Made by a program: the position numbers and the translations under genes. Below are positions 1 to 25,852 of a DNA stretch of 32,000 nucleotides, in pieces. The stretch comes from an uncultured Bacteroidales bacterium (GTDB lineage: Bacteria; Bacteroidota; Bacteroidia; Bacteroidales; Paludibacteraceae). Positions within the stretch are counted from its first letter, which is position 1, and every line of letters starts with the position of its first letter. Below the pieces are notes generated by a model. That model was not told the DNA's origin, did not search any database, and worked only from the letters and a program-made list of their open reading frames with translations. The stretch spans positions 108,332-140,331 of the forward strand of contig CACYHE010000001.1 in assembly GCA_902774185.1 (NCBI GenBank). The letters run 5' to 3'.

Positions 1-100
1 CGGTGTTGAACTGCGCGTGGCAAGTTGAAAATTGAAAATTGAAAATTGAAAGGAAGATGAATAGGAATAATCCTTTCACCTTTAACCTTTCACCTTTCAT
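1..100 (-). CDS. N-terminal end of a secreted protein or lipoprotein gene that runs off the left edge; only the signal peptide is visible
   Basis: ATG (minus) at 98-100 opens MKGERLKVKGLFLFIFLSIFNFQFSTCHAQFNT..., which is open to position 1. It has a basic n-region, a hydrophobic h-region and a C/AxA-like cleavage context. It is absent from the ORF track because it is under 60 aa in the window. Confidence 0.5.
   Translation of the reverse strand, partial: MKGERLKVKGLFLFIFLSIFNFQFSTCHAQFNT
25..52. repeat. Heptamer tandem array ttgaaaa x4 (sense/minus strand ttttcaa)
   Basis: Read directly: ttgaaaa ttgaaaa ttgaaaa ttgaaag. It encodes the h-region LSIFNFQFS of the partial CDS. About 30 nt match array 16228-16255 with 1 mismatch. 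Confidence 0.95.
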
Positions 101-130
101 CCTATGTGTCCTTTCACCTTTCACCGTTCA
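72..130. repeat. Heptamer array cctttca, 4 + 3 units split by a 10-nt spacer (sense tgaaagg)
   Basis: cctttca cctttaa cctttca cctttca / tcctatgtgt / cctttca cctttca ccgttca. The start codon of the partial CDS sits at the spacer edge (98-100). Confidence 0.95.
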
Positions 131-132
131 AC

Positions 133-2445
133 TTACTTACATCCTTCATTGGGGTCGAACCATGCCGGGATATTGAAGTTCTCTTCGGGATCGTATCCTA
201 AATCGGGGTCATTGAGCACTTTCTGCAGATAGATCGCACAGATAGGCAGGGCAGAGTTGGCACCCTGACCGTATTTCATGGCGTCGAAGTGGATCTGATA
301 GTCCTCTCCGCCGCACCATGCACCGGAGACGAGAGACGGGGTGAAGCACATGAACCATCCGTCCGCATTCTCATTGGACGTACCAGTCTTACCACCCATC
401 GGCGCTTTGATACCGTATTTATACCGCATACGGATACCCGTTCCGACGGTATTGGTGACGCTGTCTTTGCCTAAGACGGACTGTAACATATAGGTCATCT
501 TATAGGCGGTCGTCTCGCTGATGATCTCATGCGTCTTGGGCGTGAAGGAGGCTATGACGTTTCCGTTACTGTCTTCAATACGCGTCACGTAGAGCGGTTC
601 GGTTCGGATACCTTTGTTGGCAAAAGTGGTATATGCGTCCACCATCTCTTCCACACTCACCTCACACGGACCCAGACAGAGCGACACGACGGGGTCTATC
701 TGCCCTTTGATACCGAAGGACCGCATCAGTTTGACTAACTGCTCGGGCGTGTAGAGGGACATGATATAAGCAGACATCCAGTTGGATGATATCTGAAGAC
801 CCCATTTGAAGTCATGTATCTCGTACTGGTGTTCGGCGTGCGTGTCCGCCGGGGTCCATATACTGTCGTTTGGCAGCACGAAGGAGACGGAGTCATAGAC
901 CATCGAGTCGCAGGGCCACATGCCTTCGTCCATCGCCAGAGTGAAGAGGTAAGGCTTGACGGTAGAACCGATCTGACGACGACCTTTGGTGGTCATGTCG
1001 TACTGGAACTGCTCGAAGTTAGGTCCGCCCACATAGGCTTTGACGTGACCCGTATGGGGATCCATCGACATGAATCCGCAGCGCAGGAAACTCTTCTGCC
1101 AACGGATCGAGTCGTAGGGTGTGAGCATGGTGTCCACCATGCCTTGGTAAGTGAACATCCGCATCGGACGGGGTTCGTAGAACGTGCGCAGGATCGAGTC
1201 ATGGGCAATGCCGGCTTTCTTCATGAGGCGGTACCGGTCGGTCTGCTTCATGGCTTTCTCCATCGTTGCCTGCATGTCGAAGGCATGGGCTCCTTTGCCT
1301 AACTGTTTCCGGGAGGGTTCGGAGAAAGGTGCATAGCGTTTGCGTTTCAACTCATTGTCGAAGTCTTTCTGCAGCGCACTCATGTGTTCGTTCACCGCCT
1401 CCTCGGCGTAACGTTGCATACGCGAATCGATGGTGGTGTAGATCTTCAAACCATCCTGGTAGATATCGTATTTGGAACCGTCGGGTTTGCGGTATTTCTC
1501 GCAAAAACCATAGAGCGGATTATTCTCCCATTGCTGCTTATCGATGCTGTACTGCAACTTGTTCCAAGACGGATAATCGCTCTCACGCGGTTCTTTGGCT
1601 GTAAGTGTAAGTCGCAGATACTCACGGAAATAAGGCGCGATACCTTGTTTGTGATCGACGGAACTGAAATGCAACTCCAGCGGTAAGGCAGACACGGAAT
1701 CACGGGTTGCTTCGTCGATATAACCGTACTTCGCCATCTGACTGAGGACGGTGTTCCGACGGTTCTTCGCCCGCTCCGGATGACGACGGGGGTTGTAGTA
1801 CGAAGGGTTCTTACACATGCCCACTAACATTGCCGATTCTTCGATCTTGAGGTTCTTGGGCGTGGTGTTGAAGTAGATCTTGGCCGCCGACTGGATACCT
1901 ACGGCATTATAGAGAAAGTCGAACTGGTTGAGGTACATCAGCAGGATCTCATCCTTGGAGTAGAGTCGTTCCAACTTGGTAGCGATGACCCATTCGATGG
2001 GTTTCTGCATGGCGCGCTCCATGGTGTTGTTGGCACGCGGTGACCATAACTGCTTGGATAACTGCTGGGTAAGCGTACTGCCACCACCGGCTTTACCCAT
2101 CTTCATGATGGCACGGAACATGGATTTGAAGTCGATGCCGGTATGGGTGTAGAAACGGGCGTCTTCGGTAGCGATGAGCGCCATGATGAGCGTGTCGTTC
2201 AGGTCACTGTACTGCACGCCGACACGGTTCTCGTACCGGTAATAACGACCCAAGGACTGATGGTCCGACGAGATAATCTCGCTGGCGAAGGTGTTCTTCG
2301 GGTTCTGTAACTCCTCCAAGGGCGGTAAGTAACCCAATGCGCCTTTGGTGATGAGCCACATGATGAGCCAGACGGCCACTATTCCTACTACGAAGATACT
2401 CCAGAACCAAATCAGGAATTTCTTATACCACGGTTTCTTCTCCAT
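133..2445 (-). CDS. mrcA: Class A penicillin-binding protein 1A (bifunctional transglycosylase/transpeptidase)
   Basis: GT51 motifs EDARFYTHTGID, GGSTLTQQ and RKxxE-like are present, as are transpeptidase motifs STVK, SSN and KTGT. I chose the start at MEKKPWYKKF (ATG 2443-2445) ahead of the TM helix. The 2446-2610 extension in the ORF track overlaps hemW and has no PBP-like sequence. Confidence 0.93.
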   Translation of the reverse strand: MEKKPWYKKFLIWFWSIFVVGIVAVWLIMWLITKGALGYLPPLEELQNPKNTFASEIISSDHQSLGRYYRYENRVGVQYSDLNDTLIMALIATEDARFYTHTGIDFKSMFRAIMKMGKAGGGSTLTQQLSKQLWSPRANNTMERAMQKPIEWVIATKLERLYSKDEILLMYLNQFDFLYNAVGIQSAAKIYFNTTPKNLKIEESAMLVGMCKNPSYYNPRRHPERAKNRRNTVLSQMAKYGYIDEATRDSVSALPLELHFSSVDHKQGIAPYFREYLRLTLTAKEPRESDYPSWNKLQYSIDKQQWENNPLYGFCEKYRKPDGSKYDIYQDGLKIYTTIDSRMQRYAEEAVNEHMSALQKDFDNELKRKRYAPFSEPSRKQLGKGAHAFDMQATMEKAMKQTDRYRLMKKAGIAHDSILRTFYEPRPMRMFTYQGMVDTMLTPYDSIRWQKSFLRCGFMSMDPHTGHVKAYVGGPNFEQFQYDMTTKGRRQIGSTVKPYLFTLAMDEGMWPCDSMVYDSVSFVLPNDSIWTPADTHAEHQYEIHDFKWGLQISSNWMSAYIMSLYTPEQLVKLMRSFGIKGQIDPVVSLCLGPCEVSVEEMVDAYTTFANKGIRTEPLYVTRIEDSNGNVIASFTPKTHEIISETTAYKMTYMLQSVLGKDSVTNTVGTGIRMRYKYGIKAPMGGKTGTSNENADGWFMCFTPSLVSGAWCGGEDYQIHFDAMKYGQGANSALPICAIYLQKVLNDPDLGYDPEENFNIPAWFDPNEGCK

Positions 2446-2459
2446 ATAATTGTTGTTTT

Positions 2460-3536
2460 TTAGTCTCTCATTAAATCTTCTATAATGCGGTTGAGCAGAT
2501 GGATCCCTTGCTGCGTAGCGATGACGCGGTTGTTCTTTATTTGCAACAAACCGGCTTCCAATAGGTCGTCGATGTCCCCGTCTATATCTTCCCTTGCCAC
2601 ACCTTGGCATGTTCGTAAACCCAACATTATGTGTTCGTTATAGCGGTCGGTTTCGGTGAGGGTCTCTTGTTCCCGAATGAGTGTCCCGTCTTCGATGCCG
2701 CGTATGTAAGCATCCAAGTCATCGGGGTTCCAACTGCGTACATTCCTTATATAACTATGCGCGCCTGCGCCCACGCCTACGTAGGGGGTGTTGTTCCAAT
2801 AACTGCCGTTATGCTGCGAGGCGTATCCGGGTAAGGCGAAGTTACTCACCTCATAATGGACGAATCCCGCCTGCTGTAAGCGCTCACACAGATAGTCGTA
2901 CATCGCATTCTCCGTGTCCTCGTCGATCGCCTTAATTCGTTCATTCATTAATTCATTATACAAGGCCGTACCGGGTTCGTACATCAAGCCGTAACACGAT
3001 ATATGTCGGATGCCGAGTGTCAATGCGGTCTCGATGTCCGCTTTCCATTGGTCCATCGTCTGCGTAGGCAAGGCGTATATCAGGTCGATGGATATATTGT
3101 CCAAGCCTGCTTCCTGTGCCATATGTACGGCATCGATGGCTTGCTGTGCATTATGTCTTCGTCCAATCAGTGTCAGCAAGTCATCTTGGAAGGACTGTAC
3201 GCCCATTGAGAGACGGTTGACACCCAAAGCACGCAAACCCTGCAGGTATTCCTTCGTGACATCGCCCGGGTTGACCTCCACCGTATATTCCGCTACCTGA
3301 TCCCTATTCAGCACGTGGTTAATACGGGTCATCGCTTCCAAGGACAAGGTGCTTGGCGTTCCGCCGCCTATATAGATCGTGCGGATCGGTTCGCCTGCTT
3401 CGTCCTGCCGTGCTTTTATCTCTTGGACCAATGCCGATACATACGCGTCCTGCCGCTCCAACCGGGTGGTGGAGAAGAAATCGCAATACAAGCAGCGCTT
3501 CTTGCAGAACGGAATATGTATATACAGACCGGACAA
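2460..3536 (-). CDS. hemW: Radical SAM heme chaperone HemW (HemN-like, coproporphyrinogen III oxidase family)
   Basis: The N-terminus MSGLYIHIPFCKKRCLYCDF carries the CxxxCxxC radical SAM motif, and a HemN_C-like tail follows. The start codon at 3534-3536 is TTG, the first start after an in-frame TAA. Confidence 0.9.
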   Translation of the reverse strand: MSGLYIHIPFCKKRCLYCDFFSTTRLERQDAYVSALVQEIKARQDEAGEPIRTIYIGGGTPSTLSLEAMTRINHVLNRDQVAEYTVEVNPGDVTKEYLQGLRALGVNRLSMGVQSFQDDLLTLIGRRHNAQQAIDAVHMAQEAGLDNISIDLIYALPTQTMDQWKADIETALTLGIRHISCYGLMYEPGTALYNELMNERIKAIDEDTENAMYDYLCERLQQAGFVHYEVSNFALPGYASQHNGSYWNNTPYVGVGAGAHSYIRNVRSWNPDDLDAYIRGIEDGTLIREQETLTETDRYNEHIMLGLRTCQGVAREDIDGDIDDLLEAGLLQIKNNRVIATQQGIHLLNRIIEDLMRD

Positions 3537-3570
3537 TTTATGATTTATGATTTATGATTTATGATTTGTG
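3536..3570. repeat. Heptamer array atttatg x5 (sense cataaat)
   Basis: atttatg x4 followed by atttgtg. It fills the hemW-rarA junction and contains the rarA TAA stop (3559-3561) and its last 3 codons. It abuts the hemW TTG start. Confidence 0.95.
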
Positions 3571-4782
3571 CCAAAACTCTGTGCCGACGAGTTCATCGGG
3601 TAAGTACTGCTGCGCTACCCAATGGTTCGGGTAATCATGCGGGTACAAGTACCCGTCGGCGTACCCGAGATCTTTCATCAAACTCGTCGGAGCGTTACGC
3701 AGGTGTAAGGGAACGGGTAGGTTACCCGTCTCACGCACTTTAGCCAAGGCATCGTCGATGGCCAAATAAGCGGAGTTATCTTTCTTGCAGGTAGCCAGAT
3801 AGATGGTTGTCTCTGCCAAGGGGATACGTCCTTCGGGCCAACCGATCTTATTCACCACATCGAAGCAAGTGTTGGCGAGTAACATCGCATTGGGGTTCGC
3901 CAAACCGATATCTTCGCTTGCCAGAATGACGAGTCGCCGTGCAATGAACTTCGGATCCTCCCCGCCTTCTATCATGCGTGCCAACCAGTAGATGGCAGCT
4001 TGCGGATCGCTACCCCGAACGGACTTGATGAAGGCAGAGATGATGTCGTAGTGCATCTCGCCGTCCTTGTCGTACGCGACGGGGTTCTGTTGTAACTGTT
4101 TGGTGACCGTCTCATTATCAATGATTTTCGCACCGCTGTTACTTACCAGTTCGATGATATTGAGTAGCTTGCGTGCGTCACCTCCACTATACCGCAAGAG
4201 TGCCTCGGTTTGTTTGACTTCGATATGAAGCGAACGGATGATCTCATCTTTGGTGAAGACGCGGTTGAGCAGTTCCATCAGGTCCTCTTTGTCGAGCGAC
4301 TTGAGGACATAGACCTGACACCGGCTGAGGAGCGGGGTGATCACTTCGAAAGACGGGTTCTCGGTCGTGGCACCGATAAGGGTGATCGTTCCTTCTTCCA
4401 CCGCACCCAAGAGGCTGTCCTGTTGGGATTTGGAGAAACGGTGGATCTCATCGATGAAGAGGATGGGGGAACGACTGTCCGCAGGCGCAAAGAGACCGCT
4501 GTTGATGGACGCAGTGCGTTTGGCTTTGTCAATGACGTCCCGTACTTCCTTCACGCCGCTCGTGACCGCACTGAGGGTGTAGAAAGGTCGTTGCAGTTGG
4601 TGCGCGATGATACGGGCAAGGGTTGTCTTACCTACACCCGGAGGTCCCCATAAGATGAAACTGGCGATATTTCCGCTCTCTATCATCTGACGAAGGATGG
4701 CTCCTTGTCCCACCAAATGGCGTTGACCTATGTATTCGTCCAGCGTCTTCGGACGCATGCGTTCTGCTAATGGCAAACTCAT
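3559..4782 (-). CDS. rarA: Replication-associated recombination protein A (AAA+ ATPase RarA/MgsA)
   Basis: Walker [10 protein letters not shown], Walker [11 protein letters not shown] and an MgsA_C-like C-terminal domain. ATG at 4780-4782. Confidence 0.93.
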
Positions 4783-4815
4783 TTATGATGTACGATTTAC
4801 GATGTACGATTTAAT
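4781..4815. repeat. Heptamer array with a 14-bp super-unit (atttacg atgtacg)
   Basis: atttatg atgtacg atttacg atgtacg atttaat. It contains the rarA ATG (4780-4782), the recN TAA (4797-4799) and the recN C-terminal residues LNRTS. Confidence 0.95.
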
Positions 4816-6377
4816 AATTCCTTGGCGGTGCTAAGCGCAGCTTCTGTGGTTTGTTTTCCACTCAGCATGGTTGCTATCTCTGTGATACGTTCTTCGTTAC
4901 TGAGACGGCTTATGTGGGTCTCGGTACGTTTATCGGTATCGGCTTTATATACTTTGTAATGGTGGTCACCGAGTGCCGCTATCTGCGGCAGATGGGTGAT
5001 GGCGATGATCTGTCTGTGTCCCGCCATCTCCCGCATGATCGATGCCATCTGGGTGGCGATGTCGCCGCTCACACCGGTGTCTATCTCATCGAAGATGATA
5101 GTCGGCAGACCTTTGGTTCCGGCTATCAGTGCTTTGACACAAAGCATGAGTCGGCTTATCTCACCGCCGGATGCCACTTCGCTGACGTTGCGCAGGCTCT
5201 GGTTGAGGTTGGCGGCAAAGAGCAGTTGTACTTCGTCGCAACCACGTGGTGTAAAGTCTTCGGTGGCAAGGATGGGGATCTCCACTTTGGCATGCGCTAC
5301 ACCCAAACGGGTCAGACCGTTTATAAGACTCTTGCATATCTGCGGTACAACGGCTTTCCGACTCTTGGTCAAGGCATCCGCTGCTTTGCGCAAGGCGTTC
5401 TTCTCTTTCTCCACCTGTTTCTGTGCCTGCTCGATATCGAAATCGAAGGAGTCAAGTCGGTTGACCTGTTCCGCCAATTCATCCCGCATGGCGATGAGTT
5501 CGTCGATCGTCTGCGCACCGAACTTATGCAGCAGGTCTTCCAGTTGCCCGATACGCTCTTCCACCCATTGGAGTCGGGCAGGGTCCATCTCGATATGATG
5601 TAACTTCCGCTCTGCCTCCTCGGCGATGTCTTGCAGTTCGATCCGGGCACTGTCGATTCGTTCCTGCAGGTCATTTGCCGCTTCGTCCAACCGACAGGCA
5701 CGCAGTGCTTCGATGGCGCTTCCTTGTTCGCCGTTCAAGGCAGAGATAGCCGTCTCTAAGGCGGCACGGATCTCTTCCGCATGACTGAGCGTGTATTGCT
5801 CTTGCTCCAGTTCTTCCAACTCGCCGCTTTGCAAGTCGGCATCGCTCAATTGCTGGAACCGATACTGGATATAATCGGCATCGGTCCGGCTTTTCTTTGC
5901 CAAGTCCTGCAGATGTCGCAAGGCTTCGCATGCCTTTGTATAACGCTCGTATTGCGCCGAATAAGTATCTACAAGCGCTTCGTTCTGCGCGATAGTATCT
6001 ACGATATCCAACTGAAAATCAGCATTCTCGATGAGCAGGTTGGCATGCTGCGAATGGATGTCAATGAGTCGGGTAGCCAGCACTTTGAGTTCCTGCAATG
6101 TCACAACGCTGTCATCAACGAAGGAACGACTCTTGCCGTTACTGTACAATTCCCGACGGATGATACAATCGGAGAATTCCGCCTCGATGATACATTTGTC
6201 TTCGCCGTCGGTGATGACCTTACTGTCCGCCCGGGCACCCAAGACCAATGCCAAGGCACCAAGAATGATACTCTTACCGGCTCCGGTCTCACCTGTCATG
6301 ACGGAGAAGCCATCTTCAAAATCAATATTCAGATGACTTATCAGCGCGTAGTTCTGTATGTGTAAATGCTTAAGCAT
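4797..6377 (-). CDS. recN: DNA repair protein RecN
   Basis: Walker A GETGAGKS, a long coiled-coil middle, SGGE signature and Walker B IIFDEIDTG. I chose the start at MLKHLHIQNYALI (ATG 6375-6377). The track start at 6386 is a TTG inside the repeat array. Confidence 0.92.
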   Translation of the reverse strand: MLKHLHIQNYALISHLNIDFEDGFSVMTGETGAGKSIILGALALVLGARADSKVITDGEDKCIIEAEFSDCIIRRELYSNGKSRSFVDDSVVTLQELKVLATRLIDIHSQHANLLIENADFQLDIVDTIAQNEALVDTYSAQYERYTKACEALRHLQDLAKKSRTDADYIQYRFQQLSDADLQSGELEELEQEQYTLSHAEEIRAALETAISALNGEQGSAIEALRACRLDEAANDLQERIDSARIELQDIAEEAERKLHHIEMDPARLQWVEERIGQLEDLLHKFGAQTIDELIAMRDELAEQVNRLDSFDFDIEQAQKQVEKEKNALRKAADALTKSRKAVVPQICKSLINGLTRLGVAHAKVEIPILATEDFTPRGCDEVQLLFAANLNQSLRNVSEVASGGEISRLMLCVKALIAGTKGLPTIIFDEIDTGVSGDIATQMASIMREMAGHRQIIAITHLPQIAALGDHHYKVYKADTDKRTETHISRLSNEERITEIATMLSGKQTTEAALSTAKELLNRTS

Positions 6378-6379
6378 TT

Positions 6380-6409
6380 CTTTCAACTTTCAACTTTAAA
6401 CTTTCAACT
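6380..6409. repeat. Heptamer array ctttcaa x4 (sense ttgaaag), recN leader
   Basis: ctttcaa ctttcaa ctttaaa ctttcaa ct. Positions 6379-6409 are identical (31 nt) to 9024-9054 inside aroE. Confidence 0.95.
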
Positions 6410-6410
6410 G

Positions 6411-6436
6411 ACAGAATCAATTTCCGTTGATTCTGT
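6411..6436 (-). terminator. Perfect 10-bp stem / 6-nt loop hairpin spanning the DUF4835 stop codon
   Basis: acagaatcaa (6411-6420) and ttgattctgt (6427-6436) are exact reverse complements. The TGA stop at 6417-6419 lies inside the stem. There is no U-tract. Confidence 0.35.
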
Positions 6437-7343
6437 CATACGTTGCCTGCCGGGTGGCATCGATATCCATCAGCAGGTCATACACTGTTTTCTTCTCTTT
6501 GTCCGTTCCTTTGCTGAAGATATCCACCAACTCATCGGCTTTGGCGTCCAGGAAAGTGTTGATGACGTAGGTAGCGGGACGGGAACGATAGGCCTCTTTG
6601 AGCACCGGAATGCCTTCGGCGATACGTGCTCTGCCGTTGGTGGCATTGGCACTCATCTCGTCCAAACCCAAACGGTGGTACTCGTAATAGAAATTGCGGT
6701 ATTTCTTGAAAGACTCATCCAAGAGGTTATTAATCAGCGCGTAACGGTTTCGGTTACTGTTAAACGCCGTCCATCCTTTCTGTTCCTTATCGTCCATGCT
6801 CACACCTTGGCAGAGGGTGACGATCTGTTCGCATTGCTGGAAGAACGGGGTGCCGCCTAAACGCTGAAAACTATCGCAGTCATGCCCGATGATGAGATAA
6901 CAGTAGTACGCCAACATCGCCGTGAGGTTGGTAGAGAATGTGTTCTGCTGCCACTCGATGCGGTCAAACTCCTCGTACGTGAAATTGAAGTTTTCATCCC
7001 GGAAGTTGAGGAGCGGGGTGGTGTAGGTCGTGCCAAAGACGGGACGACGGCTCTGTAGTGTCATCTCGCAAAGGTACAGGTTGTCCTGCACGGCTTTTAC
7101 AACAAGTAACATGCTGCACTCGATTTTCTCATGCTCCGCAAAGGTCATGTTGGTCCATCGGTTCTGGTTCATGTACTCTTCGATGGCGGTCTTGAGGGTG
7201 GCAAAGGCCTGTTTGTTCGAACCCTCTATCTGATCCGAGTTCACCGTGACCGTGCATTTGAGTTCCTGGGCATGAAGGGGAGCACAGAACACAGAACACA
7301 GAACACAGACCGATAATGCTATGTATCTAAATTTTAAAATCAT
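6417..7343 (-). CDS. DUF4835 family protein (PorD-like), secreted
   Basis: Signal peptide MILKFRYIALSVCVLCSVFCAPLHA/QE followed by a VTVNSDQIEGSNKQAF...NQNRWT block typical of DUF4835. Its position next to recN is the usual Bacteroidota synteny. The family name is from memory. Confidence 0.8.
   Translation of the reverse strand: MILKFRYIALSVCVLCSVFCAPLHAQELKCTVTVNSDQIEGSNKQAFATLKTAIEEYMNQNRWTNMTFAEHEKIECSMLLVVKAVQDNLYLCEMTLQSRRPVFGTTYTTPLLNFRDENFNFTYEEFDRIEWQQNTFSTNLTAMLAYYCYLIIGHDCDSFQRLGGTPFFQQCEQIVTLCQGVSMDDKEQKGWTAFNSNRNRYALINNLLDESFKKYRNFYYEYHRLGLDEMSANATNGRARIAEGIPVLKEAYRSRPATYVINTFLDAKADELVDIFSKGTDKEKKTVYDLLMDIDATRQATYDRINGN
7283..7310. repeat. Heptamer array cacagaa x4 (sense ttctgtg)
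   Basis: cacagaa x3 followed by cacagac. It encodes VCVLCSVFC, the h-region of the DUF4835 signal peptide. Confidence 0.95.
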
Positions 7344-7366: not shown

Positions 7367-8440
7367 TTACTTAGTAATTGATTCAATGTTTCCGGTTCGT
7401 TCGTTAAAGAGAATGACGGGCAGTTGATCGCCGGTAAAGAGTTCTTTGGGCAGCGGTACGTCGATCCCTAACTGGGCGATGGAGATGGTGCGTTGTGCCA
7501 ATTCGTTCTCATTATAACGAACGGTCACGACACCGTTTCCCGGCAGGTTATACACGATCTGCGAGAGGGCAGGAGCCGTTTCTCCTTTTTTCTTCTTCTT
7601 GTCAAGGGGTTCCGGTGCCGGTTTGGCATATTTCTGTGGTTGGAGCGCTACCTGCACGCGAATAGGCAGGGCTTCGAGATTCTCGGCATCGGTGAAACCG
7701 TTCTCAGGAGAGAAGAACCATACATGCTCGGTGCTATCGGGCAGGAAGCTTACTTCTTTATGGATGGTTCGGGTGGTCTTTTTGCCGATGAACAGTTCGG
7801 TCAGTGCCTGTTCCTGTTGGTCCAGTTCTTCCAACACCCGTTTCATCGCTGTGCCATCCGCAGGTGCATGTTCCACTTCGCCGCTCAGCAGGTACATACG
7901 GGTCTCCCGCAGATGGAAGATCTGCTGGGCGATCGCATTGGCTTGCGCCAAAGGAGACGCCGCTTTGAGTACTTCTTCGGGGTACGGCGCGACCTTGATG
8001 GAAGGCTGTTTCTTGCTGCACTCGTCTTTGGACGTATTACCCTTCACCCGTTCACCGTTCATCTTTTCATCCTTGTTCTGCGGCAAGTTATATCCGACCA
8101 GCAGTCCTTTCTCGTTGATGGTCAGAACCATCGGAACCTCGGACTCATGGGTCACCTTGTGCGGACGTGTACGGTCGGCATTGGTACGGGTCAAGACACG
8201 GGCACCGGTGAGGGTGTAGGTCGTCTTTGTCTCCTCAACGGCATTCGTGGCACCGATGAGGTCCGCTGCGAATGCTGCATAGGGACCTGCTTCTTGGTTC
8301 TCTACCTGATACGTGAAGTCAATGACCACTGTTGTCTGCGGTGCATAATACACCATCGCCGACTCATTGGGTGCCAGCACTTGTGCGTGGCTAGTACTGA
8401 TCATTACTGCTCCAAGGAGCACTAAAAAGAATTTTTTCAT
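7367..8440 (-). CDS. Secreted hypothetical protein, DUF4831-like
   Basis: 357-aa ORF with signal peptide MKKFFLVLLGAVMISTSHA/Q. The family assignment is from memory and is less certain than the CDS call. Confidence 0.75.
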   Translation of the reverse strand: MKKFFLVLLGAVMISTSHAQVLAPNESAMVYYAPQTTVVIDFTYQVENQEAGPYAAFAADLIGATNAVEETKTTYTLTGARVLTRTNADRTRPHKVTHESEVPMVLTINEKGLLVGYNLPQNKDEKMNGERVKGNTSKDECSKKQPSIKVAPYPEEVLKAASPLAQANAIAQQIFHLRETRMYLLSGEVEHAPADGTAMKRVLEELDQQEQALTELFIGKKTTRTIHKEVSFLPDSTEHVWFFSPENGFTDAENLEALPIRVQVALQPQKYAKPAPEPLDKKKKKGETAPALSQIVYNLPGNGVVTVRYNENELAQRTISIAQLGIDVPLPKELFTGDQLPVILFNERTGNIESITK

Positions 8441-8453: not shown

Positions 8454-9170
8454 TCAATTATTCCAAATCTTCCAAGCTTCTTTGGCTTGACCTGTTAACA
8501 TCTCTATTCCGTTCTGCGTTCGGACACCTTGTGCTTTGCCTTTACGCAAGAAGAGGGTCTCTTCGGGGTTGTAGATACAATCGTACAACAAATGTTGTGC
8601 CGAAAGGTGTTCGTAGGGTATCGGCGGACAAGTATCGATATCCGGATACATGCCTAATGGCGTACAGTTGACGATGACCGTATGGCGGTTCATGATGTCG
8701 GAATCCAAATCGTCGTACGTCAAGGTTCCTTCTGCAGCATGCCTACTGACAAGGGTAGGGACGATCCCTAACAGCCGTAACGCATAGCACACGGCTTTGG
8801 CGGCACCGCCAGTACCTAACACCAAGGCCTGTCGGTCTTGTTTGTGCAACAATGGTCTTATCGATTCCATGAATCCGATATAGTCGGTGTTGTAACCGGT
8901 TCGTTGATACACCACGTTTACGGCGCCTATCGCTTGTGCCGTCGGGTCGATACGATTCAGGTACGGGATAATCGCCTGTTTATACGGATACGTCACATTA
9001 AACCCGTCCAAATCGGACAAAAGTCTTTCAACTTTCAACTTTAAACTTTCAACTCTCGTTGGGTACAACGAGTACTCCGCCTCTATGCCTTCTGTCGCAA
9101 ATTTCTGATTGAAGAACTGCGCAGAGAACGAGTGTTCCAATGGAAATCCTATGATACCGAAGTGACGCAT
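8454..9170 (-). CDS. aroE: Shikimate dehydrogenase
   Basis: MRHFGIIGFPLEHSFS, GFNVTYPYK, GAVN and the NADP-binding GTGGAAKAV motif. It contains a translated heptamer array at 9025-9054 (RVESLKLKVER). Confidence 0.9.
   Translation of the reverse strand: MRHFGIIGFPLEHSFSAQFFNQKFATEGIEAEYSLYPTRVESLKLKVERLLSDLDGFNVTYPYKQAIIPYLNRIDPTAQAIGAVNVVYQRTGYNTDYIGFMESIRPLLHKQDRQALVLGTGGAAKAVCYALRLLGIVPTLVSRHAAEGTLTYDDLDSDIMNRHTVIVNCTPLGMYPDIDTCPPIPYEHLSAQHLLYDCIYNPEETLFLRKGKAQGVRTQNGIEMLTGQAKEAWKIWNN
9025..9054. repeat. Heptamer array ctttcaa x4, translated inside aroE
   Basis: ctttcaa ctttcaa ctttaaa ctttcaa ct. It is read in frame as RVESLKLKVER. Confidence 0.95.
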
Positions 9171-11717: not shown

Positions 11718-11719
11718 TT

Positions 11720-11749
11720 CTTTCAACTTTAAACTTTCAACTTTCAACT
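11720..11749. repeat. Heptamer array ctttcaa x4 (sense ttgaaag), ettA leader and folA 3' end
   Basis: ctttcaa ctttaaa ctttcaa ctttcaa ct. The flanks catttc...ctg are identical to those of array 6380-6409. Confidence 0.95.
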
Positions 11750-12234
11750 GCTTTCACGTATTCAGCAAACGTGAAAGCATAGGGGTTATTTTCGTCTGCA
11801 GAGTGCCGTTCTGCACTGAGTTGTTTCCAAATAGCCGGGTCTATCTCCGGAAAGAAGGTATCGGCGTCCGGCCAGGAATGATGAATATGGGTGATATAGA
11901 GTTTATCCGCAAACTCCATCGCCTGGCGATACACCATGCCGCCTCCAATGACAAAGGCTTCCTCTTCACCATTGATACATTTCACCATTTCATCAATACT
12001 ATATACCGTCTCGGCCCCTTCGAAGGTCTTACCCTTCACGTCCGTCAACACGATATTACGACGGTTGGGTAGGGGATGTTTGGGTAAGGACAGGAACGTC
12101 CGTTCCCCCATCATGACGGTGTGACCGCTTGTGATGGTTTTGAAATGCTTCAAGTCCGCCGGCATGTGACACAACAGGTCACCTTTCTTGCCGATGGCAT
12201 AATTCTCAGCTATTGCTACAATAATACTTATCAT
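11737..12234 (-). CDS. folA: Dihydrofolate reductase
   Basis: MISIIVAIAENYAIG..., MGERTF, a VIGGG-like motif, and 165 aa. Its TGA stop at 11737-11739 lies inside heptamer array 11720-11749. Confidence 0.9.
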   Translation of the reverse strand: MISIIVAIAENYAIGKKGDLLCHMPADLKHFKTITSGHTVMMGERTFLSLPKHPLPNRRNIVLTDVKGKTFEGAETVYSIDEMVKCINGEEEAFVIGGGMVYRQAMEFADKLYITHIHHSWPDADTFFPEIDPAIWKQLSAERHSADENNPYAFTFAEYVKAVES

Positions 12235-13168: not shown

Positions 13169-13291
13169 CTGATTATTGATTTTTAATTCGAAGAATTTGG
13201 AAGATTATTTTGATAAAATGATTTGCAAATTTATTTGTGAAAGCAGTTTAGCAAAATAAGATTCGTATTGTCAAATAAAATCAATAATCAG
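13169..13291. repeat. 123-bp element bounded by a perfect 15-bp inverted repeat (MITE-like, E2); carries the likely GxxExxY promoter
   Basis: ctgattattgatttt (13169-13183) and aaaatcaataatcag (13277-13291) are exact reverse complements. The interior holds a minus-strand TTTG-N18-TAAATTTG. Confidence 0.5.
13226..13255 (-). promoter_or_regulatory. Probable promoter of the GxxExxY / small-membrane-protein pair
   Basis: The minus strand reads TTTG (13252-13255), N18, TAAATTTG (13226-13233), about 85 nt upstream of the ATG at 13140. Confidence 0.4.
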
Positions 13292-13353
13292 GGTTTTGTA
13301 TGTTTTTTTCTTAAATTATCAATCAGTGTTTTATATGTTTTTTTCCTTCAAAT
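13281..13353. repeat. Tandem imperfect duplication of about 37 bp just downstream of the thyA stop
   Basis: tcaataatcagggttttgtatgtttttttcttaaatt versus tcaatcagtgttttatatgtttttttccttcaaat. The first copy includes the right inverted-repeat arm of element 13169-13291. Confidence 0.7.
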
Positions 13354-13354
13354 T

Positions 13355-14203: not shown

Positions 14204-16294
14204 CTAGTATAGTTTATACGTTGTTTTGAGTACCTTGAACTCGGTACGACGGTTGATCTGGTTGCAGATCTCTTGTTTGTCAATCGGCAGACTGTTGATG
14301 AACGTCTCGTCCAGCACTTGCTCAACCGGTATCCACGGATATTGCTTGTTAAGCGCCTTGTCTGCCACCACCGGTTTGGTTTTACCGTATCCTACCGGCG
14401 TCAGACGTTCTTTCTCAATACCGTGTTGGATGAGGTAGTCACAGCAACTCTGTGCACGTTTCTGACTTAACTCGTTGTTGAACTCGTCCGTACCCTTCAA
14501 GTCCGTATGGGCACTGAGCTCAATGGTGATATTGGGGTTGTCGTTAAGCAGTTTAACCAATTTCTCCATCTCTTTCTCCGAGGCCTGCGTCAACTCCCAT
14601 CGACCGAACTCATAGAACACATTCTCCATCGTGACGGGTCGGCTAATCGGTTGCAGCACAAAGTCCATCGTGTAGGTCTTGCTGTCCTTCAAACCGAAGG
14701 TGTTCCATTGCTCTTTGGCGTTCAGATAACCTCTGGCGGTGACTAACATGACGTACTTGACGTCTTGTTGCAGTTTGATCTTGTACTTACCGTCCCGACG
14801 GGCGTTGAGTTTACTGTTCGTGCCGTCGGATCCCACAATACGCAACATGGCGTCGGCGATAGGATTGCCCAAACCGTCGTTCACCGTCCCTTGTGCTATG
14901 AACTCCATCTCAGGCAAGGTAAACTGGTAGATCTTATCCATCCCTTTCTTATCGCCTCGGTTGGAGGAGAAGAAACCGTTCTGACTGTTTCCGGCAAAAG
15001 TGATACCGAAGTCATCGCCGGCTCCGTTGAAGGGCGCCCCCATGTTAAACAGGATCCACACGACGCTGTCTTTGTAGGTCGTGTCACGTGTGGCTTTGAA
15101 GATATCCAGACCTCCGTAACCCGGATGACCGTTCGAGGCAAAATAGAGCGTACCGTCAGCGTGTACATAAGGGAACATCTCATCGGCACTCGTGTTGATT
15201 CCGGCTTCCAAAGGATGCGCGTTCACCCATTGGTTTTCTGCCAACTCCGCCATCCAGATATCTTTTCCTCCTTGACCGCCCGGTGCATCACTGGCGAAAT
15301 AGAGCGTGTCACCCATCGGACTGAGCGCAGGATGACCCACCGTGATCGTACTGTCGGTAAATAGTTTGACTTCCTGTGCTTCGCCCCATTCACCGCTTGC
15401 CCGTTCACTACAGTAGATCTTAGCACCCAGATCCTGACCGTTGATAGGCTTGGAGTAAGTGAAATACATCATCCTGCCGTCCTTGGTAAAGCAGCACGCA
15501 CCCATCTCTGCGTTCGCTCCGCCTTTACCACTGGTCGAGTCATTCTGTTGTTCCTCTTCCTCTTGATCCCCGTACAAACCCTCTGCCGGTTCTATCTCTT
15601 CCCATTCTCCGGCTGCGTTCTTGCGTGTCTGGTAGAGTTGGAAAAGCTGTTGACCCGTCACGTTACTGGCGCGTTTGAGTTTTTTCGTTCCCTTCTCTTT
15701 GGACTCCTGCCGGTTTGATGTGAACATGAGTGCGTCGTTTTGATCACCGATGAACATCGGGGCGAAGTTACTGCTGCGTTTCTTGTTAAACATCTTCGCT
15801 TCGCTTACCTTGTACCGGCTGGTCTCTTTCTTCCACTCGTCCATCTTCGTGCAAGCGTACTTGCCGGCCTGCGCTACATAGTCATCGGGATGGGCTTCCA
15901 GATAGGAATCGTAGTGCTTGATGGCATCTTTGTATTTACCTTGGTTCTGCAGCACTTGTGCGGCATGCAGGTAAATCGTCGAGTCCTGTAACTGGTACTT
16001 ACAACGCAATGCACTCTGGTAAGCATTAGCAGCACGGGGATTATTGATATAGCGGTAACACTCCGCCTGACGGTAAGCGACGTAGCCCTTCAAGTCCCGT
16101 TGCTTCTGCGTACTGAGCCGACTATAACAGGACTTGTAGATCTCTCCGGCCGCATAGTACTCCCCGATGGCGTATTTCTTATCCGCCCGCTTGATACGTT
16201 GCTGGATAGAGCACCCGCTCAGAAGAATTGAAAATTGAAAAATGAAAATTGAAAGGAGAAAACCTTTCACCTTTGACCTATCACTTTTCAACAT
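14204..16294 (-). CDS. OmpA-family lipoprotein with TPR, TolB-like beta-propeller, CarboxypepD_reg-like and OmpA C-terminal domains
   Basis: Lipobox LLSGC, TPR-like AECYRYINNPRAANAYQSAL, WD40-like repeats (YFASD/YFASN), and a C-terminal OmpA motif (LSAHTDLKGTDEFNNELSQKRAQS). I chose the ATG at 16292-16294 (MLKSDRSKVKGFLL...). The track start at 16315 is a GTG inside a repeat. Confidence 0.88.
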   Translation of the reverse strand: MLKSDRSKVKGFLLSIFIFQFSILLSGCSIQQRIKRADKKYAIGEYYAAGEIYKSCYSRLSTQKQRDLKGYVAYRQAECYRYINNPRAANAYQSALRCKYQLQDSTIYLHAAQVLQNQGKYKDAIKHYDSYLEAHPDDYVAQAGKYACTKMDEWKKETSRYKVSEAKMFNKKRSSNFAPMFIGDQNDALMFTSNRQESKEKGTKKLKRASNVTGQQLFQLYQTRKNAAGEWEEIEPAEGLYGDQEEEEQQNDSTSGKGGANAEMGACCFTKDGRMMYFTYSKPINGQDLGAKIYCSERASGEWGEAQEVKLFTDSTITVGHPALSPMGDTLYFASDAPGGQGGKDIWMAELAENQWVNAHPLEAGINTSADEMFPYVHADGTLYFASNGHPGYGGLDIFKATRDTTYKDSVVWILFNMGAPFNGAGDDFGITFAGNSQNGFFSSNRGDKKGMDKIYQFTLPEMEFIAQGTVNDGLGNPIADAMLRIVGSDGTNSKLNARRDGKYKIKLQQDVKYVMLVTARGYLNAKEQWNTFGLKDSKTYTMDFVLQPISRPVTMENVFYEFGRWELTQASEKEMEKLVKLLNDNPNITIELSAHTDLKGTDEFNNELSQKRAQSCCDYLIQHGIEKERLTPVGYGKTKPVVADKALNKQYPWIPVEQVLDETFINSLPIDKQEICNQINRRTEFKVLKTTYKLY
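16228..16255. repeat. Heptamer array ttgaaaa x4 (sense ttttcaa)
   Basis: ttgaaaa ttgaaaa atgaaaa ttgaaag. It encodes LSIFIFQFS of the OmpA-family lipoprotein signal peptide. Confidence 0.95.
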
Positions 16295-16328
16295 ATATTT
16301 CCTTTCACTTTTCACCTTTCACCTTTCA
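16263..16328. repeat. Heptamer array cctttca, 4 + 4 units split by a 10-nt spacer (sense tgaaagg)
   Basis: cctttca cctttga cctatca cttttca / acatatattt / cctttca cttttca cctttca cctttca. The spacer carries the ATG at 16292-16294. The last unit carries the DUF1015 TGA stop (16326-16328). Confidence 0.95.
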
Positions 16329-17615
16329 ATTTAGCTCGTGGATTACCAATCCCGAGCGTAACTTGGGTTCAAACCATGTGGTCTTGGGCGGCATGATATT
16401 GCCGCTATCGGCGATGTCGATGATCTGCTGCATGGTAACGGGGTAGAGCGCCAAAGCCACTTTCATCTCTCCGCTATCCACTCTCTGCTTCAACTCGCCC
16501 AGACCACGGATACCGCCTACGAAGTCGATTCGTTTGTCCGTACGCAGATCTTTGATGCCAAGGATCTTATCCAGAATAAGATTACTCGATATCGTAACAT
16601 CCAGCACACCTATCGGGTCCGCATCATTATAGCGTCCCTCCTTAGCGGTCAACGAGTACCACTTCCCGCCCAGATACAGGCTGAAGTTGTGCAGCGCTTT
16701 GGGTTTTACATCATTAAGCACGGAGGATTGCCTGTGGCCATCCGAATCGAGCAAGTCACCATTATAACATTCAACAATGAAGTCCTTATTAAGGGCTTCG
16801 AGGAACTCCTCCTCGCTAAGTCCGTTCAGGTCTTTTACCACACGGTTATAATCGATGATATTGAGTTGATTATCCGGGAAACAAACGGCTAAGAAATACT
16901 CGTACTCAGGAACCTTAATTTTTAATTTTTCATTTTTAATTTTTAATTCCTGTCCTACGCCAGCCGCCGCAGCTGAACGATGGTGTCCGTCAGCGATGTA
17001 CATCGCCGGAATCTCCGCAAAGATCTCGGTGATACGATCAATCGTCTTTTTGTCCTCAATGATCCAGAACGTGTGACGGAATCCTTCCGGAGCGGCTACG
17101 AAGTCATACTCCGGTGTGCCCTTGGTTACTTCTGCAACGATAGCATCAAGGTCGTCCCGGTGAGGGTAGGCGAAGAATACCGGTTCCATGTTCGCGTTCA
17201 GCGTACGTACATGTTTCATGCGGTCTTCCTCTTTGTCCTTACGCGTCAACTCATGTTTCTTAATGCGTCCCTCCAGATAGTCATCTACCCAAGCGCCGAC
17301 AACCAAACCATACTGCGTCTTGCCAAAACCCGTTTGCGCGTAAACGTAGTATTTCTCCTCTTGGTCTTGTTCCAACCAACCTTTGACACGAAAACGCTTG
17401 TATTGTGACAACGCCTCCTGATACACACGAGGGTCATGCTCATCGGTACCGGGTTCAAAATTGATCTCCGGCTTGATGATATGATACAGACTCATCTCGT
17501 TGCCTTCCGCTTCCTGACGTGCCTCCTCGGAGTTCAATACGTCATACGGCCGACTACTCACTTTGGTCACCAACTCTTTCGGTGGCCGTATTCCCTTAAA
17601 TGGTTTTATCTTCAT
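16326..17615 (-). CDS. DUF1015 family protein
   Basis: MKIKPFKGIRP..., the ADGHHR motif, and 429 aa. It contains a translated heptamer array at 16915-16949 (ELKIKNEKLKIK). Confidence 0.88.
   Translation of the reverse strand: MKIKPFKGIRPPKELVTKVSSRPYDVLNSEEARQEAEGNEMSLYHIIKPEINFEPGTDEHDPRVYQEALSQYKRFRVKGWLEQDQEEKYYVYAQTGFGKTQYGLVVGAWVDDYLEGRIKKHELTRKDKEEDRMKHVRTLNANMEPVFFAYPHRDDLDAIVAEVTKGTPEYDFVAAPEGFRHTFWIIEDKKTIDRITEIFAEIPAMYIADGHHRSAAAAGVGQELKIKNEKLKIKVPEYEYFLAVCFPDNQLNIIDYNRVVKDLNGLSEEEFLEALNKDFIVECYNGDLLDSDGHRQSSVLNDVKPKALHNFSLYLGGKWYSLTAKEGRYNDADPIGVLDVTISSNLILDKILGIKDLRTDKRIDFVGGIRGLGELKQRVDSGEMKVALALYPVTMQQIIDIADSGNIMPPKTTWFEPKLRSGLVIHELN
16915..16949. repeat. Heptamer array ttaattt x5, translated inside the DUF1015 gene
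   Basis: ttaattt ttaattt ttcattt ttaattt ttaattc. The sense strand reads ELKIKNEKLKIK. Confidence 0.95.
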
Positions 17616-17620
17616 CGTTT

Positions 17621-17686
17621 GATTTACGATTTTATGATTTACGATTTTACGATTTATTAGACGATTTCGATAAATTTAACGATTTG
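17621..17686. repeat. gatttac/gattttac array (alternating 7/8 bp, 15-bp super-unit) grading into degenerate copies
   Basis: gatttac gattttat gatttac gattttac gatttattagac gatttc gataaatttaac gatttg. It lies directly upstream of the DUF1015 ATG. Confidence 0.9.
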
Positions 17687-17709
17687 TAGAAGACAATGGT
17701 CCAATTCTG

Positions 17710-17766
17710 TCAATTGATCAATTGATCAATCAATCGTCCAATCGTCAATCGTCCAATCGTCAATTA
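17710..17766. repeat. tcaattga x2 followed by a caatcgtc/caatcgt array (7/8 alternation, 15-bp super-unit x2)
   Basis: tcaattga tcaattga tcaat caatcgtc caatcgt caatcgtc caatcgt caatta. It ends at the bactofilin TAA (17764-17766). Confidence 0.9.
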
Positions 17767-18126: not shown

Positions 18127-18140
18127 AATATAATTATTTA

Positions 18141-18161
18141 TCAATTGTCAATTATCAATTA
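18141..18161. repeat. Heptamer array tcaattg/tcaatta x3
   Basis: tcaattg tcaatta tcaatta. It lies at the bactofilin-esterase junction and contains the esterase TGA stop (18155-18157). Confidence 0.85.
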
Positions 18162-18954: not shown

Positions 18955-19110
18955 CACGCGCGTACTTTTTTATGATTTTTATTACTTTTTCCTTCTTCCA
19001 AATTCGCATAGTTCAAAATTATTTGTTCCTTAATATCCTATGTATCGAACTCAACCATCGATACCTGTGTAATCCATGTAAAATAAAGGCTTGCCACGTA
19101 TGCGTATTGG

Positions 19111-19150
19111 GTGATTATAGGGAGATTATTGCGTGATTATTGCGTGATTC
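19111..19150. repeat. 11-bp period tandem repeat gtgattattgc x3.6
   Basis: gtgattatagg gagattattgc gtgattattgc gtgattc. It lies in the spacer between the FGE stop and the esterase promoter. Confidence 0.85.
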
Positions 19151-20534: not shown

Positions 20535-20688
20535 GCCTTGTCCCTAACAAATACTGTGCCATATATAAAATGTGATATTTTCTTATTTTGCGTGTTTTTT
20601 GGGGAATGGAGAAGATGAGGAATGAAAATCGAGGGGGTGTCGAAAAATGAATAAAAATCGCTTAAAATGCAAAAAAATGGGCAAAAAA

Positions 20689-25815: not shown

Positions 25816-25852
25816 AAGTTATATAGTATATATAGTAGAAAGTTATTAGAGT

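Follow-up and report, generated by a model that had tools for sequence, protein, structure and literature searches.

We analysed a 32,000-nt stretch of DNA from an uncultured Bacteroidales bacterium (Paludibacteraceae; GenBank assembly GCA_902774185.1, contig CACYHE010000001.1, positions 108,332 to 140,331; the whole stretch is called the window below), in which the gene for shikimate dehydrogenase (aroE) contains a tandem array of a 7-nt unit that is translated in frame. Comparison of orthologous sequences indicates that this heptamer array is ancestral to a genus-level clade. We lean towards the reading that this array and others like it are micro-cassettes, which would be written by template switching or copy-paste and tolerated in frame, the survivors being filtered by selection.

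The heptamer array of aroE and its orthologues

On the sense strand the array is A GTTGAAA GTTTAAA GTTGAAA GTTGAAA GA (type (TTGAAAG)x4.3), and it is read as A GTT GAA AGT TTA AAG TTG AAA GTT GAA AGA, beginning at the third base of codon 39 and ending with codon 49 (for this and the other features, see Table 1). The sequence at 9024-9054 (tctttcaactttcaactttaaactttcaact) is identical to that at 6379-6409 (31/31 nt), and two near-copies with 2 mismatches each were found at 11719-11749 (same strand) and 25786-25816 (opposite strand); these 4 matches to the 31-mer compare with 0.00 expected from 100 dinucleotide-preserving shuffles. With Tandem Repeats Finder (TRF), all four copies were recorded as head-to-tail direct repeats of at least 3 copies with a period of 7 nt (4.3 copies at 9025-9054, 6380-6409 and 11720-11749; 4.4 copies at 25785-25815). 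Any (TTGAAAG)n puts TGA in frame at every third unit, which would be why unit 2 is TTTAAAG: by direct reading, TTGAAAG as unit 2 would give AGT TGA, an in-frame stop, whereas TTTAAAG gives TTA. The first-pass annotation, which was made from the letters of the window alone, had described the 31-nt identity with a non-coding second copy, the in-frame reading between the EYSLYP strand and the GFNVTYPYK motif, and the avoidance of TGA by the TTTAAAG unit, and all of these were borne out. Both copies recur in two other assembled contigs, namely L082 (a metagenome contig in ENA, 99.99% identical to the window over 12.3 kb and possibly from the same source) and the strain L081 (94-98% identical), and the aroE array was also found in several other metagenome assemblies from different samples. 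The array was thus real, but the annotation was incomplete: arrays are abundant in the window, stand in frame in other genes and are adjoined by hairpins, all of which had been overlooked. As a separate observation, the UUUAAAG of the stop-avoiding unit (9040-9046, sense U UUA AAG) stands in the X XXY YYZ phase of a -1 slippery heptamer; the -1 frame would reach TGA a few codons on, and a downstream stimulator is not obvious.

The first-pass annotation had implied a private or recent event, which is not supported: an array-like segment, VESLKLKVE-like or a sister of it, is present in all 120 closest orthologues (71-95% identity). The segment peptides have the form x-E-x-L-x-[LS]-x-[VI]-E or similar and fall into few families (VESLKLKVE, IEDLRLKIED, IGNLKLEIGN, VEGLKSKVE and KEENLESKVES), with the exception of DKDEWMNGERVKG. 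The array columns are in frame in every orthologue and constant in length save in P0002 (+2 aa), and an aroE allele without the array, sought among these 120 sequences, was not found. In species-representative genomes, the AroE that matches best has 70% identity. At identities of 61% or less the segment is non-periodic and up to 3 aa shorter, and the period-7 score of array-less orthologues is at background. The presence of the array at 71% identity or more, together with the non-periodic segment at 61% or less, therefore shows that the array is ancestral to the clade and not recent. Five of the seven genus-level relatives that were read at the DUF4835/recN junction (L084, L086, L207, L209 and L210) have the aroE array, and their junction is an array-free TAATG overlap; because these five relatives carry the one array without the other, the aroE copy is no younger than the one in the recN leader.

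The finding of VESLKLKVE-like orthologues was one that the first-pass annotation would have taken as the mark of an ancestral helix; literally, such orthologues exist, but the array stands, with lineage-specific 7-nt DNA units that are absent at 61% identity or less. In the orthologues of which the DNA was read, the heptamer array is in the same register, partly decayed in L209 and replaced by a cassette in L208, and the unit type at the aroE site differs per lineage (GTTGAAA, GTCGAAA, ATTGAAG, ATTGGAA or TGGTCAT). Substitutions recur in all four units of one lineage, and the private T of unit 2 is retained. Note that a second site in aroE, near residue 143 (about 140-150), carries in-frame arrays in other lineages; there the arrays lengthen a loop of the NADP-binding domain.

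As for the protein, PF08501 (Shikimate_dh_N) was recorded on all AroE matches, and residues that include S14, K64, N85, D96 and Q228, putatively catalytic, are invariant across the orthologue set and present in the protein of the window. The protein matches 1nvt with E=1e-37 over residues 4-237. The array segment aligns without gaps to 'PENLKYVIDGAKA' in 1nvt and 'PEELKKAFEGFKA' in 2hk7, and it is at most 3 aa longer than in the array-less orthologues, which agrees with the earlier suggestion that a segment was overwritten and the protein not lengthened. The AlphaFold model (mean predicted local distance difference test (pLDDT), 78.6, but 34-68 over residues 1-60) has a helix at residues 43-53; its exposure at the surface is not supported, given the low N-terminal confidence. 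Solved AroE sequences have an E-x-L-K-like motif at the place of the array (PEELKK, PENLKY), and the canonical codons TTG AAA (Leu-Lys) may have been the seed of the heptamer unit. The array would encode only a loop and the first turns of the second helix and have no separate function; no function of the array in AroE is shown, nor is one needed to explain the data.

Turnover, copying and adjoining hairpins

Within aroE the array codons are unusually uniform between some relatives and unusually divergent between others. Between L083 and L086, 12/12 array codons at conserved residues are identical, compared with 48% elsewhere in aroE (p=2e-4), and between the window and L084 the figures are 10/11 and 56% (p=0.02). 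In the pair L209 and L210 (92% identical in aroE), 14/39 array positions differ, compared with 45/678 elsewhere (p=4e-7), and an 18-mer common to both (AGAGTCTAAAGTCGAAAG) is displaced by exactly 7 nt; this displacement amounts to one unit gained 5' and one lost 3', and the frame is therefore kept. One-unit differences were also found in junction arrays, namely between the window and L081 at 18138-18162 and between L209 and L210 3' of aroE. Whole arrays differ as well: L081 is without the recN/rarA array (30 nt and one codon) and without 42 nt at the folA/ABC-F junction, the genes overlapping instead in both cases, and L086, L207, L209 and L210 have stop/start overlaps at most of the junctions that hold arrays in the window. 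Since relatives have overlapping stops and starts at the array junctions, the junction arrays are insertions. Both the number of units and the presence of whole arrays are thus polymorphic between close strains, the latter at ~95% identity. The signal-peptide array of DUF4835 has been replaced in place (TCTGTGT in the window, TATTAGC in L081, TTGGCTG in L086), and the DUF1015 array of the window corresponds in L081 to a non-array segment that is 9 nt shorter.

Copying between genes is indicated by two cassettes. At the aroE array site of L208 (P0002; 79% identical; L208 1142-1864) stands an unrelated segment, ACAAGGATGAATGGATGAATGGTGAACGGGTGAAGGG, which matches ACAAGGATGAAAAGATGAACGGTGAACGGGTGAAGGG of the DUF4831 gene of the window (KDEKMNGERVKG); a 17-nt exact run was verified, and ~34/37 positions agree by hand count. 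The DUF4831 gene of L208 itself is without the cassette. From these sequences, a 37-nt non-simple match in two genes is judged to be copying and not convergence. The other cassette is the 30-mer AGTTGAAAGTTGAAAGTTTAAAGTTGAAAG, or a sister with T in unit 2, which stands in frame in several genes of rumen contigs (DHFR, a ManC-like NTP-transferase, a GT4 glycosyltransferase and another open reading frame (ORF)); in DHFR it takes the place of MVKCINGEEEA of the window orthologue, with +3 aa. One element was thus found in frame in unrelated genes (AroE, DHFR, NTP_transferase and GT4), and a second in DUF4831 and aroE; at least one in-frame cassette has therefore moved by copying from one gene to another. 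A serine codon switch in the DHFR of L150 was considered as a sign of templated change and was dropped, because TCN codons occur in relatives too.

Each of the four TTGAAAG copies in the window has a perfect hairpin on the 5' side of the sense strand, with the 3' arm touching the array. At the recN junction, the 5' arm (6409-6438 hairpin) is the end of the DUF4835 coding sequence (CDS), and the stop codon straddles the loop end and the start of the 3' arm; array-less relatives read ...ATCAACCAGTAATG... there and have no 3' arm. In L083 the arms at this junction (TGATCGAATCA / TGATTCGATCA) are its own and match its own synonymous codons; between the window and L083 two positions differ per arm and the pairing is kept. 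At the 3' end of folA (window 11737-11800, L081 7407-7537), 9/25 of the last coding bases differ between strains that are ~95% identical elsewhere; these differences turn D-Y-T to A-F-T and create the 5' arm of the hairpin beside the inserted array. In aroE, the L083, L086 and L207 lineages each have a stem of their own at that place, with slight shifts of register. As to strict covariation of a single aroE hairpin, the stems of different lineages are out of register with one another, and when the arms were swapped between lineages, native and chimeric hairpins did not differ significantly (p=0.07). Array-bearing aroE orthologues fold better than synonymous-codon nulls (mean z, -0.91), and the array-less ones have z of about 0 (Mann-Whitney p=0.007).

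The adjacency was tested with 62 arrays (from the window, genus-level relatives, and rumen contigs with T-variant arrays), for which a perfect stem of at least 7 bp was required to end -2 to +5 nt from the 5' end of the array on the purine-rich strand. Such a stem was found on the 5' side of 12/62 arrays, on the 3' side of 3/62 and at 0.5% of random positions; among the matches are the array inside DHFR (9-10 bp) and the one inside the ManC-like gene (11 bp). Hairpin adjacency was rejected as a feature of heptamer arrays in general (0/49 in other Paludibacteraceae loci, 4/124 in diverse contigs), the minimum free energy of the flanks also giving no general signal. The link to hairpins is thus real for this lineage, and it is neither universal nor required for heptamer arrays. 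The hairpins are followed by AGUUGAAAG... with no U tract and hence are not intrinsic terminators, as judged by direct reading.

Arrays in the window and in related loci

In a self-similarity scan of the window, 12 arrays were found at period 7, none at periods 4-6, 9, 10 and 12, and a single one at period 8 and at period 11. Period 7 alone is over-represented in the window, with 12-13 arrays overall and 0-2 at any other period from 4 to 12. Loci of related metagenome-assembled genomes (MAGs; L001-L056) have 0-6 period-7 arrays per 8.7 kb and almost none at other periods, and loci from other phyla (non-Bacteroidales) have none; the period-7 excess was sampled on the 32 kb window and on fragments, not on a whole genome. 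The units in the window are TTGAAAG (x4), TCGAAAG, TGAAAGG, TTGAAAA/TTTTCAA, AAATCAT/AAATCGT, TCTGTGT, AATTAAA, AATTAAG and ATAATTG, and the arrays are about 27-34 nt long. Five of them stand in coding sequence (aroE, CinA, DUF1015, DUF4835 and OmpA/PD40); most make up nearly the whole of a short operon junction and end a few nt before the next ATG. Neither the 95% strain L081 nor five of the relatives have the third TTGAAAG copy (11719-11749). For position and composition, 67 arrays from the window and related loci were used: their median length is 30 nt, 27/67 stand 5' of a start codon (median gap before the ATG, ~5 nt), and the sense strand of those 5' of genes has 3% C and 29% G. The host lineage of the arrays is uncultured Paludibacteraceae-like Bacteroidales of rumen or gut metagenomes.

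Table 1. Positions of the aroE array, other arrays, cassettes and hairpins, and the array units of aroE orthologues
Feature	Source	Positions	Strand	Remarks
aroE, shikimate dehydrogenase, PF08501	window	8454-9170	minus	238 aa
In-frame TTGAAAG array in aroE	window	9024-9054	minus	residues 39-49, peptide (R)VESLKLKVER
7-bp hairpin in aroE CDS	window	9055-9072	minus	CTCGTTG-TACC-CAACGAG, codons S-L-Y-P-T-R; 3' arm ends at array start
Non-coding 31-mer copy	window	6379-6409	minus	1 nt 5' of recN ATG (6377), 3' of DUF4835 stop (CDS end 6417)
12-bp hairpin at recN junction	window	6409-6438	minus	TGACAGAATCAA / TTGATTCTGTCA; 3' arm abuts array
Third TTGAAAG copy, variant unit in position 3	window	11719-11749	minus	supplies folA TGA stop, ends 1 nt before ABC-F ATG (11717)
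10-bp hairpin at ABC-F leader array	window	11750-11778	minus	GCTTTCACGT / ACGTGAAAGC; 3' arm within the 42 nt missing from L081
Fourth TTGAAAG copy	window	25785-25816	plus	sense orientation; contains ruvX stop, 36 nt 5' of def ATG
7-bp hairpin at ruvX/def array	window	25767-25784	plus	CTCGAGG-GTTA-CCTCGAG
In-frame (TCGAAAG)x4 array	window	28021-28050	plus	CinA inter-domain linker
In-frame AATTAAA array	window	16915-16948	minus	loop of DUF1015 protein
In-frame TCTGTGT array	window	7283-7309	minus	signal-peptide core of DUF4835
In-frame TTTTCAA array	window	16226-16254	minus	40 nt (~13 codons) into OmpA/PD40 protein; signal peptide by position only
In-frame cassette in DUF4831	window	8036-8075 (approximate)	minus	sense ACAAGGATGAAAAGATGAACGGTGAACGGGTGAAGGG = KDEKMNGERVKG
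Junction array AAATCGT/ACATCGT	window	4781-4813	minus	between recN stop and rarA ATG
Junction array (AAATCAT)x4.6	window	3536-3567	minus	between rarA and radical-SAM gene
Junction array, TGAAAGG type	window	16262-16328	minus	5' of OmpA/PD40 gene; upstream flank strongly structured (-13.0 kcal/mol)
Junction array ATAATTG	window	18138-18162	minus	exactly one unit more in L081
Junction array (AATTAAG)x4.4	window	21420-21450	plus	15 nt 5' of an ATG
TGAAAGG-type arrays	window	72-134	minus	3' of PBP gene
Array at second aroE site	L055	4418-4449		AGGCGAG
Array at second aroE site	L056	4452-4485		AGGTGAG
Array at second aroE site	L020			QLAIGDGQLAIG, QLAIGDG repeat
GGCGAAA/GGCGAGA arrays	L006/L007/L014/L016/L055	~3200-3340		in aroE-flanking genes
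GGCGAAA/GGCGAGA arrays	L013/L027/L028	~5120-5170		in aroE-flanking genes
aroE array units	window, L081, L084			GTTGAAA GTTTAAA GTTGAAA GTTGAAA
aroE array units	L210			GTCGAGA GTCTAAA GTCGAAA GTTGAAG
aroE array units	L083, L086			ATTGAAG ATTTAAG ATTGAAG ATTGAAG
aroE array units	L207			ATTGGAA ATTTGAA ATTGGAA ATTGGAA
aroE array units	L001-L003 (70% identity)			TGGTAAA TGGTCAT TGGTCAT TGGTAAT
aroE array units	L209			partly decayed

The (TTGAAAG)4 array was found on at least 120 metagenome contigs of 30-67% G+C. Shared flanks or ends were sought among 90 copies on 80 metagenome contigs, and nothing common was found beyond the array; a mobile element with conserved ends, such as a transposable element of the miniature inverted-repeat type, a repetitive extragenic palindrome or a Rickettsia palindromic element, was rejected on the grounds that these 90 copies lack shared flanks and that the hairpin arms are local sequence. 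Contigs with one (TTGAAAG)4 array often hold more: of 81 additional arrays, 15 share the unit, and one contig holds as many as 6; the array families are therefore genome-specific. Stops in all three frames were considered as a selected feature of the junction arrays and were rejected (17/27 observed, 20 expected from shuffled units). Periodicity had no effect on the RNA structure of the arrays beyond base composition, the arrays being nearly unstructured and composition-matched shuffles equally so, and the Rfam search of the whole window gave 0 matches at or above the gathering score. Near 20 kb the GC skew reverses and so does the orientation of the genes, and replication and transcription are thus confounded in the window as causes of the strand bias. 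The sign change of the GC skew and the minimum of the cumulative skew are at ~19500-20700, with minus genes up to 20429 and plus genes from 20667; this region could be a replication origin or a divergent operon boundary, and a dnaA gene was not seen in the window.

Some further repeats were observed. Heptamers take up 106-193 nt of the spacer 5' of aroE in another lineage of Paludibacteraceae (L046 3879-3984, L047 3817-3990 and L056 3803-3995), with units that drift along the array and include AGAGGTG (Shine-Dalgarno-like, GAGGTGA) and TAGGGTT (the plant-telomere unit). The GGCGAAA/GGCGAGA arrays (24-66 nt) stand in frame in aroE-flanking genes of several MAGs at orthologous positions (d5'=213, 389). 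In the window, a pyrimidine-rich 7/8-nt array at 30543-30580, in the minus O-methyltransferase-like ORF 30281-30925, has the sense sequence CCTTTCAACCTTCATCCATTCAACCGTTCACCC, is read in frame as ILSTFIHSTVHP, and is the reverse complement of the GGATGAA/GGTGAA family of DUF4831 and the L208 aroE. The 148-nt spacer 5' of the DUF1015 gene (17616-17764) consists almost entirely of period-7/8 and period-15 arrays, with units of ATCGTAAA type at 17620-17656 and TCAATTGA and CAATCGTC at 17710-17764, and is largely different in the 95% strain L081. Other tandem repeats lie in longer intergenic regions (a 35-nt unit x1.9 at 13286-13354; the 11-nt TATTGGGTGAT x4.1 at 19105-19149).

Possible origins and comparison with known systems

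If the arrays are written and renewed by template switching in replication or repair, three forms of it would be involved: slippage with a 7-nt offset, ectopic templated copying, and a palindrome-perfecting switch at a stalling hairpin. Selection would act only as a filter on the resulting arrays, and the coding survivors would be those with no in-frame stop, a length change that is a multiple of three, and a fold-tolerated, helix-compatible peptide (V/E/S/L/K). When a heptamer that is read in three phases is homogenised, every unit position would be non-synonymous in some unit; for this reason synonymous sites would be frozen without any need of function. The identity of the aroE array to the recN leader is probably membership of one within-genome family through ectopic copying, and the stop-avoiding T in the non-coding recN-leader copy suggests a coding donor. 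The in-frame arrays are at permissive positions (signal peptides, linkers and the AroE helix, presumably at the surface). The junction arrays plausibly persist by uncoupling overlapping genes and by giving ~30 nt of C-poor, unstructured sequence beside the ATG; initiation in Bacteroidetes/Bacteroidia is Shine-Dalgarno-independent and tuned by low mRNA structure (Baez 2019, PMC6847099). Several points weigh against writing by template switching. It rests on the comparison of metagenome assemblies, so that the mechanism is deduced and not observed, and the frozen synonymous sites may instead reflect a function at the DNA or RNA level. The 12 hairpin matches include orthologous sites (aroE x5, recN x3), which leaves an estimate of ~8-10 independent loci; adjacency is lacking in the other Paludibacteraceae loci and rare in the diverse contigs; and the aroE hairpin itself is only modestly supported (stem of 7 bp, mean z -0.9, and the non-significant chimera comparison). 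The AlphaFold confidence over the N-terminal 60 residues is weak, and the low structure of the arrays is fully explained by base composition, which makes a role in the initiation region only plausible. A broader form of the same idea, which we regard as possible though doubtful, is that an active cassette-writing process operates in a genus-level rumen/gut Paludibacteraceae lineage; the cassette would consist of an inverted copy of local upstream sequence and a ~30-nt heptamer array, it would be placed in gene junctions and, in frame, in surface segments of housekeeping enzymes, the same sites would be overwritten repeatedly, and the agent could be a replication/repair peculiarity or an unrecognised enzyme. 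If true, this would be a transposase-less, self-renewing class of micro-element that remodels operon junctions and protein surfaces.

Alternatively, hairpin and array together could be a functional RNA or DNA module that is selected even in coding sequence, for example a protein-binding site, an RNA processing/stability element, a standby site for ribosomes or an aroE regulator, and this we consider unlikely. It would explain why synonymous sites in the array are far more conserved than in the rest of aroE, why hairpins of different sequence abut the array in several lineages, why the upstream coding sequence beats synonymous nulls in folding only in array-bearing orthologues, why the junction modules are sense-oriented and right at start codons, and why the recN-leader pairing is kept despite two changes per arm. 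However, units that vary between lineages and within the genome make a single sequence-specific partner unlikely, aroE is intact despite the decay in L209 and the unrelated cassette in L208, and the same cassette occurs in unrelated enzymes; homogenisation accounts for the frozen sites, the window has no Rfam match, and the exchange of arms was not significant. A contingency (phase-variation) switch, in which gain or loss of one unit would turn aroE on or off by frameshift, is highly improbable. The unit length is not a multiple of 3, junction arrays of close strains differ by one unit, and the compensated +7/-7 pair amounts to unit slippage inside aroE; yet alleles with several unit numbers that switch the frame were not found among the 120 orthologues, all of which are in frame with an array of constant length save P0002. 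Moreover, four units make a short array for switching at a high rate, aroE has a housekeeping role, and DHFR, CinA and signal peptides hold similar arrays.

The two remaining explanations have still less in their favour. That a small mobile element was copied from the recN leader and recently inserted to give the aroE copy, as the first-pass annotation implied, would agree with the 31/31 identity, variant unit included, with the copy-paste of in-frame cassettes, and with the coming and going of whole ~30-42-nt arrays between ~95% identical strains. We regard it as barely credible, and as largely refuted in direction and age: all 120 orthologues, with identities as low as 71%, have the array at the same codons, L084, L086, L207, L209 and L210 carry it without the recN-leader array, only in the coding copy does the T variant serve a purpose, and among the arrays on 80 metagenome contigs neither flanks nor ends are conserved. 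An ancestral amphipathic helix that merely looks repetitive, for which the E-x-L-K-like motif of solved AroE sequences and the possible TTG AAA seed might speak, or an assembly artefact, has a next to negligible probability. Protein selection cannot give a strict 7-nt period across three codon phases, and it leaves unexplained the identical codons across species and the parallel changes in all four units; the DNA comparisons, with the array-less orthologues at the period-7 background, refute this reading, and recurrence of the array in assemblies of different samples argues against an artefact.

Bacterial heptanucleotide repeats have been described for decades, with no accepted account of their origin or function, and the aroE locus offers a stepwise orthologous series: five units and one foreign cassette at one enzyme site, a compensated shift, and presence or absence of junction arrays at ~95% identity. 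If the same holds genome-wide, slippage and template switching could rewrite surface segments of proteins and separate overlapping genes, and both the reason for the 7-nt unit and what the repeats do would become testable in a gut/rumen lineage. For annotation, VESLKLKVE, IEDLRLKIED or KDEKMNGERVKG in Bacteroidales proteins derive from repeats and are not conserved motifs.

Among known systems, the TAACTGA heptamer direct repeats occur in Beggiatoaceae, in cyanobacteria and in a small number of Bacteroidetes, Paludibacter propionicigenes among them (MacGregor 2015, PMC4679880). Sets of them are mostly intergenic, a few nt 5' of start codons, in forward orientation and often over the upstream stop, a few sets lying peripherally within ORFs; they were proposed to act in translation initiation, the function being unknown (PMC4679880). 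The present arrays resemble them as tandem heptamers just 5' of starts, forward, overlapping stops and in some cases inside ORFs. They differ in that many units coexist, whereas one TAACTGA-type unit dominates each genome, in their size of ~30 nt, in standing in frame in conserved enzyme domains, in the concerted change of units and in abutting a perfect hairpin. Heptamers of the short tandemly repeated repetitive (STRR) type were reportedly described in cyanobacteria by Mazel in 1990. The long simple sequence repeats (LSSR) of prokaryotes have units of 5-11 nt, with heptanucleotides commonest, as summarised in later papers (Mrazek et al. 2007 via PMC4679880; also PMC4692102). As far as these summaries go, LSSR and STRR share with the present arrays a heptanucleotide excess in sporadic lineages, a mainly non-coding location, a proposed origin by slippage and genome-specific families; LSSR with units that are not multiples of 3 are reported there to avoid coding sequence, unlike the ~30-nt blocks with stop-avoiding units that were repeatedly fixed in frame here. 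Contingency loci likewise have a repeat with a non-multiple-of-3 unit inside an ORF, but here no out-of-frame alleles were seen, the genes are housekeeping ones, and the copy number is low and fixed.

Rickettsia palindromic elements are said to be inserted in frame in protein genes (reportedly by Ogata in 2000), and the same is said of cyanobacterial small dispersed repeats (reportedly by Elhai in 2008). The likeness lies in one short element being in frame in unrelated housekeeping genes at fold-tolerated positions; those elements are longer and have a palindrome of their own, whereas here there is a plain heptamer array of which the hairpin arm is local and the ends are not conserved. Template-switch mutagenesis, by slipped-strand misalignment in direct repeats and by quasi-palindrome correction, is said to be known from the work of Ripley and of the Lovett laboratory. 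It would account for one-unit changes, for clustered changes that perfect a hairpin, and for overwriting without large change of length; a genome-wide population of ~30-nt period-7 arrays is not a known product of it. A literature search on heptamer arrays in Bacteroidales gave nothing specific. As far as the searched literature shows, the population of ~30-nt arrays with many units that this Bacteroidales lineage carries appears to be new, as do the repeated in-frame fixation in conserved enzymes, the side-specific hairpin, and the orthologous series with concerted unit change, compensated shifts and cassette replacement.

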